Virus record (IMG/VR): IMGVR_UViG_3300027816_000057
Length of the DNA: 64,000 nt
Source: a virus
Direction: 5' to 3' (one strand)
Below, piece after piece: positions 1,207 to 24,600 of this stretch (position 1 is its first letter; each line of letters begins with the position of its first letter). The position numbers and the translations under genes were made by a program. The notes under the pieces are model-generated. The model was given only the letters and a program-made list of their open reading frames with translations. It did not search any database and was not told the DNA's origin.

Positions 1207-1543
1207 AGATTTAGAGAGTGGCAATTTTAGACAGGCAAGATGTAAACTTAAAGATCAAAGAAATAAAGGTTATAATTATTGTTGTATTGGTGTAGCTGAA
1301 GTTTCGGCTAAAAAATGTGATCTAGTTAATGATGTTACTCATAATGTGAGCGGTGATTTACTTTCAGTACTTGCTGAAGAACCAGACGGTTATGATATCG
1401 TAAAGCATTTTTTGAATACTAAAAATCCAGAAATATCTATCAATAATATTGATACAAATTGTATTTCAGCTAATGATAGATATCTTTGCAATTTCAAGCA
1501 AATAGCACAAGGTTTGCGGGATAAATACAATGTTCGAGGTTAA
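1160..1543 (+). CDS. Phage protein, WxxALRSG/YCCLGV family, copy 1
   Basis: WIKDLESGNFRQ..YCCIGV..ND..FKQIA; paralogs at 22180 and 22533. Confidence 0.7.
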   Translation: MKLTQKARKFLRQWIKDLESGNFRQARCKLKDQRNKGYNYCCIGVAEVSAKKCDLVNDVTHNVSGDLLSVLAEEPDGYDIVKHFLNTKNPEISINNIDTNCISANDRYLCNFKQIAQGLRDKYNVRG

Positions 1544-2549
1544 AAACTATCGTCTGCGGCTAGTAGAACCATTAGTTAATTCAGACTTTCTTGATATAGC
1601 GTGGGTTAATGATTGGCCCTGCGTCGTAAAACGATCGCAGTATAAAACTGGTGATCTTGTTACTTATATTCCCTCCGATTCTATAGTTCCGGATGAATTG
1701 CTGGAACAAATTGGTCTTAAAGGGAAATTAAGTGGTAGCCGTAAAAACCGGGTAAAAGCTGTTAGACTAAGAGGCCAGTTTAGCTGCGGTTTGATTGTAG
1801 ATGTTCCTAACGGAACAGAAGAAGGCCAAGACGTAGCCGAGATTTTAGGTATTACAAAATACGAAGAACCTATTCCTGCTCAGCTTAGAGGAGTAGCAAG
1901 AAAACATCCTCCGTATTGGTTACATTATGATATCGAAAATATTAGAATGTATAATAGCTGGTTTGAAGAAGGTGAAAGCGTTGTTATAACTGAAAAAGTT
2001 CACGGATGTAATTGCTCGTTCTCTATTCATCTTTCAGATGAAAATGAAATCGTTTTTAGTGTATCATCTAGAAATATAACCTTAGAAGAATCTGATTCGA
2101 ATACATATTGGTCTGTTGCTAGAAAATATAACATTAAAGATTTCATGATGAAATCGTTTTCGCACCTTTTAAATAAAGGAGACGCGATATATTTGTATTG
2201 CGAAATTCTTAATACTCAGGATTTAAAGTATGGAATTCCAAATGGCGAGTTTGAAATCAGGTTCTTTGATCTCCGATTTAATTATAATTGGAGGTCTTTC
2301 TATGATCTTGCTTCATTTCTTGGAAATGATTATAAAACGGTTCCTGTTCTCTACGAAGGGCCGTTCTCAAAAGAAAAAGTATTAGAATATACTAATGGCA
2401 CTGAATTGATTAGCGGGCAACAACTTCATATCCGAGAAGGCTGTGTGGTTCGTCCGGTATTAGAAAGATATTGTGGACGCAATAGAGTCATAGCTAAATC
2501 AATTAGCGAGGACTATCTAACCAGACAAAATGGTACGGAGATGCATTAA
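1530..2549 (+). CDS. ATP-dependent RNA ligase (DRB0094/Rnl5-like)
   Basis: N-terminal OB-like domain with RVKAVRLRGQFSCGL; TEKVHG motif I; REGCVVRP; AKSISEDYL. Confidence 0.9.
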   Translation: MFEVKNYRLRLVEPLVNSDFLDIAWVNDWPCVVKRSQYKTGDLVTYIPSDSIVPDELLEQIGLKGKLSGSRKNRVKAVRLRGQFSCGLIVDVPNGTEEGQDVAEILGITKYEEPIPAQLRGVARKHPPYWLHYDIENIRMYNSWFEEGESVVITEKVHGCNCSFSIHLSDENEIVFSVSSRNITLEESDSNTYWSVARKYNIKDFMMKSFSHLLNKGDAIYLYCEILNTQDLKYGIPNGEFEIRFFDLRFNYNWRSFYDLASFLGNDYKTVPVLYEGPFSKEKVLEYTNGTELISGQQLHIREGCVVRPVLERYCGRNRVIAKSISEDYLTRQNGTEMH

Positions 2550-3373: not shown

Positions 3374-4328
3374 AAAATTAATAAGCGATTTATCGTCTAT
3401 AGTAAGTAACGTAAACAGAGTCCAAGATCATATAGATGATTTAATGAAGCAAAATACAGCACTTAGATTTCCTAAGTCTATAATTAAATTAGAACTGTAT
3501 GAGGACGTAAAATATCCAGAACGTCGCTACGATAGTTATAATAGAACATATTATGATGATTTTACAACAGTAGAATTATGCGATAATATGATAACAAAAC
3601 TTGGCGAAAATCACGCCATTATGTTAGAAAGAAAAGACAAAAACGCGGCGGCTATTAAAAATAATCTAGAAGTTCTAGATAATGCTGTTAAATTTATGAC
3701 ATCATTAGGTTTAACTACAACTTATGGCGAATATAAAGGTTCCGGTAATCGTAGAAAATATGTCAGTTTAACATCTCCTTGGTATTCCTCTATACTTCAA
3801 CAAATTCCAACTGTTGATGGTTGGTATAGCTATGAATCAGCATATAAAATTAGAATGAAAGATATGCAAGATAAAAAAGAAAATATTATAAAGCAACAAA
3901 AAGAAAAAGAAGAAAAAGAAAAACGCGAAAAAGACACAAAAGAAAAAGAATTTGAATTAGCTAAATTAAAAGTAAAATATAATTTAGATGCGGAGGCGAA
4001 TGCTGATGATTTGTTAGATTCTATTTTATCTAAAAATAAATATCTATGTCTAGCTCATTATTTAGAGCTTAATAGAGAAGATTGGAATGACGGCTATGAT
4101 TATGCTCAAATGGGTATAGATAATTTTACAATTGATTCTGATTTAGATCAAAAAATATACAATAATATAACCTCTTATTTTGATGATTTTAGCGATGGTC
4201 GCGTTTTTAGAGATTGTGAATATAACTATAGTTTCTTGTATGGAATAGTAAAAGAACAAAATCAAGAATTGTATAATGATTATAAAACAGCTTTTGAACT
4301 TTTAAATTTTTTCAATCCGAGGTATTAA
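3324..4328 (+). CDS. hypothetical protein with central coiled coil
   Basis: Long ORF with K/E-rich segment; start codon uncertain. Confidence 0.65.
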   Translation: MILNQQTKMRKSMTADKKLISDLSSIVSNVNRVQDHIDDLMKQNTALRFPKSIIKLELYEDVKYPERRYDSYNRTYYDDFTTVELCDNMITKLGENHAIMLERKDKNAAAIKNNLEVLDNAVKFMTSLGLTTTYGEYKGSGNRRKYVSLTSPWYSSILQQIPTVDGWYSYESAYKIRMKDMQDKKENIIKQQKEKEEKEKREKDTKEKEFELAKLKVKYNLDAEANADDLLDSILSKNKYLCLAHYLELNREDWNDGYDYAQMGIDNFTIDSDLDQKIYNNITSYFDDFSDGRVFRDCEYNYSFLYGIVKEQNQELYNDYKTAFELLNFFNPRY

Positions 4329-10107: not shown

Positions 10108-10602
10108 ATGGAAACTTCTAAGAAAACATATCGGAATAAAAGCGAAGAGAATTTCTTTGGGGTTTTGATTGAAAACCCAAAAGTTCCGCAAAATTCATCT
10201 ATCGTTTTTAGAACGGCGGTAGGTTTAGGAAATGTAGATTTTATCGGAACCGTTGGCACTAAATATCACGACTGTCATTCAAATGTAGTTAAAGCACAAA
10301 GAATTCTACCGTGCTGGAATTTTCCTGATTTTAAGACATTTCATGGACAACTACCTATGAATTGTGTTATTGTTGGTGCTGAAATTGATGAACGATCGGT
10401 ACCTATTGAAAATTTTGTATGGCCGGATCGATGTGTTCTTTTGCTTGGAAATGAAAAAGATGGTCTATCTAAAGAAGCTCGTAGCGGTTGTCATAAACTA
10501 GTTAAACTTCCAAATCCTAGAGAGTTGTCTTTTAATTTAGCTATGGCAGGTTCTATGCTTATGTATGATCGATATTGTAAACGTATTAAAGCGGGGTTGT
10601 AG
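10108..10602 (+). CDS. SPOUT TrmH/SpoU-family RNA 2'-O-methyltransferase
   Basis: ENPKVPQN..FRT, LLLGNEKDGLS and SFNLAMAG..MYD motifs. Confidence 0.9.
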   Translation: METSKKTYRNKSEENFFGVLIENPKVPQNSSIVFRTAVGLGNVDFIGTVGTKYHDCHSNVVKAQRILPCWNFPDFKTFHGQLPMNCVIVGAEIDERSVPIENFVWPDRCVLLLGNEKDGLSKEARSGCHKLVKLPNPRELSFNLAMAGSMLMYDRYCKRIKAGL

Positions 10603-10664
10603 CTCATCGGTAGAGCGGAAAACTGTTAATTTTCTGGTAGTAGGTTCAATTCCTACCTACCCCT
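10593..10664 (+). tRNA. tRNA-Asn(GTT), atypical (T6:T67 mismatch, T73, no CCA)
   Basis: GCTC/GAGC D-stem; GAAAA-CTGTTAA-TTTTC anticodon arm; GTAGG-TTCAATT-CCTAC T-arm. Confidence 0.85.
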
Positions 10665-10668
10665 TTAG

Positions 10669-10757
10669 GCGGGATGTTCCATGAATCCGACTGTAAATCG
10701 GATGAGTGTTATATATTCATGGTGGATGCTCGGAAAGTTCAATTCTTTCATCCCGCA
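10669..10757 (+). tRNA. D-arm-less tRNA-Tyr(GTA)-like RNA with a 30-nt variable region
   Basis: Perfect acceptor GCGGGAT/ATCCCGC+A73; TCCGA-CTGTAAA-TCGGA; GAAAG-TTCAATT-CTTTC; only 10 nt where the D-arm should be. Confidence 0.75.
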
Positions 10758-11021: not shown

Positions 11022-11339
11022 ATGAATACAAACATTTATCGTCGTTATGTTCGTCGTCGCAGGCGTGGTCAGGATGTTCCCGTAGGTCTTTTGGTTGCGG
11101 AACGTTTTTCCGAAACTGTGTTTAAACTCGGCTATAGTATTTGCCATAGTACCGACCAGTTTAATCGAAAAGAAGCTTTTGCCGTCGCTACCGAGCGACT
11201 AGTTAACGAACCTATTATTGTTGATCTTAGAGACAGAGATGATATCGAATTAGCTTTAACCAGACTTCCGCATTCGTTTGTTCGTCTCGCAGACAATTTT
11301 CTTACTCTGCAACGTGGTCGTATGCGTACAAGTCTTTAA
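11022..11339 (+). CDS. hypothetical protein (GYSICxxxDQFxRxxAxxxAxxR motif)
   Basis: ORF after promoter. Confidence 0.65.
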   Translation: MNTNIYRRYVRRRRRGQDVPVGLLVAERFSETVFKLGYSICHSTDQFNRKEAFAVATERLVNEPIIVDLRDRDDIELALTRLPHSFVRLADNFLTLQRGRMRTSL

Positions 11340-11349
11340 TTCACTAAAT

Positions 11350-11380
11350 GTGGCATCTTTAGCGAGGTGCCATTATTTTT
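11350..11380 (+). terminator. Hairpin/terminator-like element just before ruvB
   Basis: GTGGCATCTT/GAGGTGCCAT stem followed by TATTTTT. Confidence 0.55.
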
Positions 11381-22097: not shown

Positions 22098-22102
22098 TTT
22101 AT

Positions 22103-22177
22103 TGGGTTTTGGTGTCATTCGGCTTAGCACTTCTGGTTGTGATCCAGAGAGACAGGGTTCGATGCCCTGAAACCCTA
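22103..22177 (+). tRNA. tRNA-His(GTG), lacks G-1:C73 (T1:T72, A73, no CCA)
   Basis: GTGT/GCAC D-stem; TCTGG-TTGTGAT-CCAGA; CAGGG-TTCGATG-CCCTG; GGGTTT/AAACCC. Confidence 0.8.
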
Positions 22178-22179
22178 TT

Positions 22180-24517: not shown

Positions 24518-24600
24518 GCCGTCGTGTACCGAATTGGTATGGTACCGGTTTTGTAAACCGGCGAGGAAACTCATTGCAGGTTCAAGTCCTGTCGGCGGCT
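24518..24600 (+). tRNA. tRNA-Thr(TGT) with a long variable arm, no CCA
   Basis: GCCGTCG/CGGCGGC+T; CCGGT-TTTGTAA-ACCGG; V-arm GAG-GAAA-CTC; GCAGG-TTCAAGT-CCTGT. Confidence 0.85.

Follow-up and report, generated by a model that had tools for sequence, protein, structure and literature searches.

The cloverleaf is, to our knowledge, regarded as universal for the tRNAs of Bacteria and their phages, and it is the basis of the annotation tools. In bacterial tRNA-Tyr the pair G1-C72, the discriminator base A73 and the anticodon GUA are the identity elements of the tyrosyl-tRNA synthetase (TyrRS). Plant RNA viruses have pseudoknotted tRNA-like structures (TLS): the bromovirus 3′ TLS mimics a tRNA and accepts tyrosine. 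In structures of the bromovirus type, which are found at the 3′ end of the genomic RNA, the pseudoknot serves to form the acceptor arm, and there is no role in decoding. Truncated mitochondrial tRNAs have lost the D domain and depend on mitochondrial factors which have co-evolved with them (PMC4013460, PMC1636415). Allo-tRNAs are 8/4 and 9/3 cloverleaves, in which the D arm is a normal hairpin (Mukai et al. 2017, PMC5389517). In a search of the literature we found no description of D-armless, non-cloverleaf or pseudoknotted phage tRNAs, nor of a tRNA-Tyr in crAss001.

The window which we have studied is a stretch of 64,000 nucleotides of viral DNA (IMG/VR record IMGVR_UViG_3300027816_000057). 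At positions 10669-10757 of its + strand there is an element of 89 bases, in which a perfect acceptor stem, a perfect anticodon arm with GUA and a perfect T arm can be read. The local D hairpin of a cloverleaf (positions 10-25) is absent: there are only 10 nt between the acceptor and anticodon stems. This connector, GTTCCATGAA (10676-10685), stands in the place of the D arm, and the variable region has 30 nt (10703-10732). The original prediction had described these arms, and the coordinates it gave proved exact to the base when the sequence was read again. We consider, with a probability of about 0.7, that the element is an intact gene and belongs to a conserved family of non-cloverleaf tRNA-Tyr, found mainly in phages, and that its RNA would be folded, charged and used in decoding as proposed below. 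The features of the region are as follows.

10108-10602, + strand: open reading frame for an RNA 2′-O-methyltransferase of the SpoU/TrmH class (Pfam PF00588, 6e-17; weak matches to RlmB/TrmH)
10593-10664, + strand: canonical tRNA-Asn(GUU), found by ARAGORN and with 66.3 bits in Rfam, 4 nt upstream of the element
10669-10675, + strand: 5′ strand of the acceptor stem, GCGGGAT, in which G1 pairs with C72; its partner is ATCCCGC at 10750-10756
10676-10678, + strand: linker GTT, whose G8 can form an eighth acceptor pair with C10749
10679-10685, + strand: 5′ strand of helix a, CCATGAA, in the place of the D stem and directly abutting the anticodon stem
10686-10702, + strand: anticodon arm TCCGA-CTGTAAA-TCGGA, with anticodon GTA/GUA (Tyr) at 10693-10695
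10704-10707, + strand: 5′ strand of helix b (the variable-arm stem), GAGT, 1 nt past the anticodon stem and paired with 10728-10731
10708-10715, + strand: loop L2, GTTATATA, A/T-rich, unpaired and variable; the version of the nearest relative, L001, is TTAACTT
10716-10722, + strand: 3′ strand of helix a, TTCATGG, inside the variable-arm loop
10723-10727, + strand: TGGAT, with a YGG triplet (TGG, 10723-10725) directly 3′ of helix a, a candidate equivalent of G18G19
10728-10731, + strand: 3′ strand of helix b, GCTC, 1 nt ahead of the T arm
10733-10749, + strand: T arm GAAAG-TTCAATT-CTTTC, with a perfect stem and a loop of the TTCRA type
10750-10757, + strand: 3′ strand of the acceptor stem, ATCCCGC, and discriminator A73 at 10757; CCA is not encoded and TTT comes next

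The two strands of helix a are exact reverse complements over 7 bp. When the connector and the variable region were shuffled, a perfect Watson-Crick run of at least 7 appeared in 0.45% of 200,000 shuffles (P = 0.0045), so the exact complementarity, which had been noticed at the outset, is beyond chance. Since the connector pairs with a strand beyond the anticodon arm, in the loop of a class-II-type variable arm, helix a and helix b cross as a pseudoknot. The variable-arm stem had been predicted with 7 bp, GAGTGTT/GATGCTC; a stem does exist there, with 4-5 bp (GAGT/GCTC), and the longer extent was not upheld. Single nucleotides flank it in the window copy, a T before GAGT and a G after GCTC. 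When helix a is added to a fold in which the three arms are kept, the computed energy falls from −19.3 to −25.6 kcal/mol. Counted from the first base of the element, C81 can be taken by either G8 or G65, and the acceptor branch may accordingly be 7/5 or 8/4. The bacterial tRNA-Tyr identity set is present: G1-C72, A73, G34-U35-A36 and a long variable arm. In the window ARAGORN called the tRNAs for Asn, His and Thr and did not call the element at 10669-10757, to which the Rfam tRNA model (RF00005) gave no match even at E<=10. We also looked for a conventional tRNA with an excised intron or with the anticodon arm elsewhere, and no cloverleaf was found in any register tried by eye. A tRNA 3′ fragment of the attP type would not fit, as both acceptor strands are present.

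The tRNA-Asn and the element probably share one transcript. The stop codon of the SpoU reading frame (10600-10602) falls within the first 10 nt of the tRNA-Asn, and L001 is arranged likewise. Beyond the window and L001, SpoU is absent near the other members of the family of rewired tRNA-Tyr genes described below, and its linkage is lineage-specific context only. Pattern matches give a promoter-like site ahead of SpoU and a first terminator-like site at 11350. The window has about 30% G+C and contains phage genes, for a DUF3383 protein, a RuvB-like protein and ThyX. Contigs from freshwater metagenomes, with lengths up to 162,761 bp, contain an identical SpoU protein. Three metatranscriptome runs match part of the 1.4-kb stretch; in the two which were examined, coverage is confined to the open reading frame at 11022-11339.

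The other tRNAs of the window have some peculiarities. The tRNA-Thr(UGU) at 24518-24600 (+), with 83 nt, has a class-II-like variable arm of 14 nt, CGAGGAAACTCATT, with a GAG/CTC stem, and it scores merely 33.9 bits with Rfam. Thr tRNAs seldom have long variable arms. Three of the four tRNA genes have GUN anticodons, which read NAY codons: Asn GUU, Tyr GUA and His GUG (22102-22178). The GUN tRNAs, which are those with queuosine, form the set targeted by anticodon nucleases of the colicin E5 type.

The nearest relative, L001 (identical to L011 and L177), is a syntenic IMG/VR contig, in which SpoU is 84% and RuvB 79% identical; it keeps both the tRNA-Asn and the element. The two elements have 83% identity over the family alignment. 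Every structural element is kept in L001: in this comparison of two sequences all differences are either unpaired or preserve the pairs, save for one lost terminal pair of helix a. The changes which preserve pairing, numbered along the element, are G15:C50 to A:T in helix a, T18:A34 to G.T in the top pair of the anticodon stem and T39.G60 (U.G) to C-G in helix b, which in L001 is GAGC/GCTC. The differences at unpaired positions are found in T35, loop L2, T55 and one base of the T loop. The element of L001 is also without an encoded CCA.

L001 was the sole relative found when IMG/VR was scanned with SpoU, RuvB, the neighbouring protein of 523 aa and two exact motifs of the element. In INPHARED, blastn with the region of 601 bp gave no match, and tblastn with SpoU and RuvB gave distant matches only. 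A search with a 17-nt motif of the anticodon arm gave canonical tRNA-Tyr genes and one unrelated hairpin. A metagenome collection which lacks the window's own contig was scanned with a T-arm/acceptor motif: it gave 40 matches, none of them homologous. In the contigs L171-L176, with a RuvB 45-53% identical, the element is absent from the neighbourhoods of SpoU and RuvB, which were those examined.

Several of these more distant phages have other features related to tRNA. L171, L173, L174 and L175 have near RuvB/ThyX RNA ligases of the T4 Rnl1 and Rnl2 types, AAA_33 kinase-like proteins and Metallophos phosphatases; in L173 this gene set, of the tRNA-repair type, additionally includes a Thg1-family protein. 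L173, whose RuvB is 53% identical, also has at 1476-1548 (+) a gene resembling tRNA-Ala(UGC), 10 nt ahead of a tRNA-Met. ARAGORN does not call it, and its D region, CATGTTCCAAGGTGGCGAT, has no obvious D stem.

Homologues of the element are found by its structure. We built a covariance model from the window copy and L001 only; the resulting family alignment will be called A2. The model matches at least 83 copies in IMG/VR phage contigs, at least 70 of them distinct, with 35-117 bits; beyond the two model sequences there are at least 81 copies, at 35-68 bits. A pattern search of IMG/VR for Tyr anticodon arms with a T loop farther downstream than a normal tRNA-Tyr would allow gave at least 119 loci. 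Among the loci listed 29 copies are crAss001-like, and most others belong to the subtype of the window. An IMG/VR scan with a fixed gap N{10}, where the layout needs N{9}, gave mostly chance matches; only L234 and L262 are real.

In A2, which was aligned to a nested model that favours helix a, this helix (columns 11-17 with 70-76) is 96.7% paired, and changes on both sides are seen at six of its seven pairs. The bias is mitigated by the invariant flanks, free of gaps, which anchor both strands, and also by RNAalifold, which recovers helix a in its own prediction of the structure of A2. There are 39 distinct pairs of helix-a strands in the family. In columns 13:74 we find CG 38, UA 12, AU 11, UG 5 and GC 4 times, counts which overstate the number of independent events because the sequences are related. 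The covariation of helix a equals in quality that of the acceptor stem (columns 1-7 with 109-115), which is 99.6% paired with changes on both sides in all seven pairs, and that of the anticodon stem, whose pairs also covary. For the whole structure on A2 none of 500 shuffles reaches the observed values, and the true register is 93% paired versus about 48% with slid partners. It had been proposed that pairing of the connector with the variable-arm loop rebuilds the D domain, and the family bears this out.

The crossing stem is equally general. Helix b has at least 4 bp in all 68 distinct members, with 34 distinct strand pairs, which include GCC/GGC, GGC/GCC, GAC/GTC, GCTT/AAGC, GAGC/GCTC and ACCT/AGGT. 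Throughout the family this helix of 4-5 bp crosses helix a, and the pseudoknot expected in the original prediction is thus supported. Helix b begins 0-1 nt past the anticodon stem in 65 of the 68 distinct sequences, and its mean score is 4.32 versus 3.49 ± 0.10 in shuffles. Loop L2 has mostly 5-7 nt. The triplet 3′ of helix a is TGG in 56 of the 68 distinct sequences, CGG in 11 and AGG in one; columns 78 and 79 are G in all of them. The likeness of this GG segment to G18G19, already pointed out from the single sequence, extends therefore to the whole family, and we infer for it a tertiary role.

Other features are those of a tRNA. In the linker, T is found in column 9 in 59 and in column 10 in 65 of the 68 sequences. 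A73 is invariant in A2, as are the TTC and A58 of the T loop; of the 69 distinct sequences which have letters at the pair 1-72, 68 have G1-C72. The anticodon loop is conserved by construction, since it was part of the search pattern. CCA is encoded directly after A73 in 64 of the 83 copies, and 67 of the 83 have a canonical tRNA within 300 nt. ARAGORN, run on all 83, called none. Position 8 pairs with position 65 (columns 8 and 108 of A2) in every one of the 83 copies (GC 61, AU 10, UG 9, UA 3), and the outer two pairs of the T stem are mostly unpaired in the relatives (region of columns 90-93 with 106-108). The family consensus therefore resembles an acceptor stem of 8 bp with a T stem of 3-4 bp. 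The window copy has all the features of the subtype with a 10-nt connector: a connector N-TT-CC-NNNNN, helix a, YGG and a crossing helix b. It is an A/T-rich member without CCA, linked to the SpoU methyltransferase.

Some contigs contain additional unusual elements. In L237 a second gene of the rewired layout (GTT-CCATGTG ... ACATGG-AGG) is found at 727-826 (−), adjoining the Tyr copy at 836-924. Its anticodon region is different and about 19 nt longer; it may have another specificity or contain an insert. In L131 (about 1228-1281) and L132 (about 1148-1244) a T arm and an end like the 3′ part of an acceptor (GAAAG-TTCAAYT-CTTTC-ATCC...) follow directly behind a normal tRNA. The approximately 45 nt upstream of this end form no cloverleaf, and the whole may be one more unusual tRNA-like element.

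When the layout of the element in the window was turned into a descriptor, this also matched crAss001 (MH675552), at 4141-4235. The match is found in the tRNA cluster of this phage, where tRNA-Lys and tRNA-Phe are separated by an unannotated gap of 170 nt. Its parts are an acceptor stem, an 8-nt connector, TAACATCA, an anticodon arm with GUA and a variable region of 38 nt. In the latter TGATGT pairs with ACATCA, which is followed by AATGG, and a CTCC/GGAG stem crosses that helix. There are 23 canonical tRNAs in crAss001, with no other Tyr among them. At least 29 copies (at least 19 distinct) are of this kind; their helix a covaries as AC-NN-CA / TG-NN-GT. Judged by its sequences, the crAss001 type is a second subtype, with helices unrelated to those of the window.

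Copies are also present in bacterial MAG contigs. The covariance model from the window and L001 finds six of them, with 52-58 bits: five in Phycisphaerae/Planctomycetota and one in Anaerolineales. Three of the six adjoin tRNA-Leu genes. In L332 (68-153 and 4580-4665), a Planctomycetota MAG contig of 6.4 kb, the rewired tRNA-Tyr heads an array of Leu, Leu, Ser, Cys and Ser tRNAs; the contig has a canonical Thr-Tyr-Gly-Thr cluster too.

The tRNA clusters in which the rewired gene is found give the strongest indirect indication of its role. Our census comprises 34 loci, each with a rewired gene and 12 or more canonical tRNAs, whose tRNA sets differ from one another. A canonical Tyr is found in two of these clusters (6%), against 71-91% (24-31 clusters) for each of the other 19 amino acids. 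As so few sets contain it, the rewired gene occupies the Tyr slot. There are six loci which have a canonical tRNA-Tyr besides the rewired gene. The data on the Tyr slot point to an ordinary role in decoding rather than to the nuclease resistance or decoy suggested in the original prediction, and the element most likely serves as the tRNA-Tyr of the phage.

We propose the following path for this RNA. RNase P and 3′ processing would release it from a transcript with SpoU, tRNA-Asn and tRNA-Tyr, and a host enzyme would add CCA. Helix a can stack on the anticodon stem because its 5′ strand continues that stem, and it would do so in the fashion of a D stem. The strand ahead of the anticodon arm would fill the canonical positions 22-26, and the strand in the variable loop, together with YGG, positions 10-19. 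Starting from the anticodon stem, the closing G.U/A-U pair would correspond to 26:44, the four covarying pairs to the D stem and the two invariant C-G pairs to the layers 8:14 and 15:48. The Y and GG would then represent the run to G18 and G19, which pair with T-loop positions 55 and 56. The two invariant C-G pairs of helix a and YGG would in this way replace the upper layers of the D domain and G18G19, and docking on the T loop would restore the L-shape. A canonical geometry of the elbow is not assured, since the link from GG to helix b has only 1-2 nt. The host TyrRS would charge the RNA by way of G1-C72, A73, the anticodon GUA and its variable arm; once charged, the RNA would decode UAY codons for the phage. 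Recognition by bacterial TyrRS involves the acceptor end, the anticodon and the variable arm, that by EF-Tu the acceptor/T branch, and that by RNase P this same branch together with the elbow; a hairpin D arm is thus not obviously required by any of the three.

Other explanations of the element have to be considered. Its rejection by tRNA finders and Rfam and the lack of an encoded CCA could be due to decay of a tRNA-Tyr, a pseudogene with a D-arm deletion and an insertion in the variable region. We find this extremely improbable: every stem is perfect in the window copy, and at least 70 distinct sequences repeat its design with compensatory changes, as does a second subtype. Random decay had been doubted from the start, and rightly so: homologues exist and covary, and the nearest relative, L001, has the same design and not a normal tRNA-Tyr. 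It is also very unlikely that the RNA is simply a D-armless tRNA without pseudoknot, with a single-stranded connector and a local hairpin in the variable region (A34-T52 to T41-A45). This hairpin is present in the minimum-free-energy fold which ViennaRNA gives for the window copy, and the D-armless mitochondrial tRNA-Ser(AGY) functions without a D arm (PMC4013460). However, when the three arms are kept the local hairpin has −17.0 kcal/mol, a worse value than the −25.6 kcal/mol of the fold with helix a. It is also broken in L001, where A34:T52 becomes T:T and T35:A51 becomes A:A; in the family its segment is the variable A/T-rich loop L2, whereas helix a covaries.

A conserved tRNA-shaped RNA might also act outside translation, either as a decoy or sponge for a nuclease that targets tRNA-Tyr or as a processing handle for RNase P/RNase Z which punctuates the operon. 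We consider it unlikely, yet it deserves more weight than the two former ones. An acceptor/T minihelix alone is sufficient for recognition by RNase P, in agreement with a handle. The tRNAs of the window (Asn, Tyr-like, His and Thr) include three of four in the GUN set of colicin E5-type nucleases, six loci retain a canonical tRNA-Tyr, and relatives carry the tRNA-repair genes Rnl1, Rnl2-like, kinase, phosphatase and Thg1. Phage tRNA-Tyr is known to counter the degradation of tRNA-Tyr by retron-Eco7 (PMC11555353). On the other hand, the specific replacement of canonical Tyr in 32 of the 34 large tRNA sets is not expected from a decoy or handle, which has no need either to retain G1-C72, A73 and an encoded CCA. 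A decoy would need no rewired arm if the nuclease recognizes its target by the normal D or variable arm. We prefer a tRNA-Tyr which decodes. Its link to defence systems that target tRNA is plausible but unproven, given the repair genes of the relatives, the GUN-rich tRNAs of the window and the precedent of retron-Eco7 (PMC11555353). One possibility is that the rewiring is an escape from a host factor which recognizes the D or variable region of a normal tRNA-Tyr.

A wider proposal has in our opinion about even chances of being right. Phages and some bacterial arrays would contain a class of non-cloverleaf tRNAs used by the ribosome, with half of the D arm transposed, a pseudoknot and an acceptor stem of 8 bp, which are the sole tRNA-Tyr in most of the phages that carry them. 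The rewiring was perhaps selected to hide from host factors which read the D or variable region, such as defence nucleases. If the decoding role is true, TyrRS, EF-Tu, RNase P, the CCA-adding enzyme and the ribosome tolerate a D domain of different topology. The rewired tRNA would provide a natural orthogonal scaffold for tRNA engineering and a concrete test case for phages which reshape their tRNAs against defences that target them. The tRNA sets of phages would also be under-annotated: Tyr seems "missing" in crAss001 and in many uncultured phages. Since crAss001 can be cultured, direct testing of its rewired tRNA-Tyr is possible. The census of the Tyr slot and the 8:65 pairing in this family are new here.

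The closest of the known systems is the canonical class II tRNA-Tyr(GUA) (RF00005; E. coli tyrT/tyrU, phage T5). The element shares with it G1-C72, A73, the CUGUAAA loop, a variable arm which forms a stem and begins immediately past the anticodon stem, a canonical T loop, a similar length and its location in phage tRNA clusters. It differs by the absence of a D hairpin: one strand of the D stem and the GG segment are found in the variable-arm loop, which gives rise to the pseudoknot. Helix a has 7 bp versus 3-4 in a D stem, the family consensus has an eighth acceptor pair and a T stem of 3-4 bp, and the element scores below every threshold of the tRNA finders. With the D-armless metazoan mitochondrial tRNA-Ser(AGY) and the truncated mitochondrial tRNAs it has in common a short connector and an anticodon-bearing arm which is effectively longer. 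In contrast to them, it rebuilds the missing helix by long-range pairing, is full-sized, has a normal T arm and would use the ordinary bacterial machinery.

Allo-tRNAs and the (8/4) tRNA-Ser/tRNA-His resemble the element in their occurrence in metagenomes and phage clusters, in their non-standard form and in their long variable arms. Their acceptor branch of 12 bp has a split other than 7/5; in the family the 8:65 pair is present in 83 of 83 copies, and the window copy can form 7/5 or 8/4. A transposed D strand or a pseudoknot, as in the element, is not described for allo-tRNAs (PMC5389517). The bromovirus TLS is, like the element, a viral and pseudoknotted mimic of a tRNA, but the element is a free-standing gene of tRNA clusters with a true anticodon arm.
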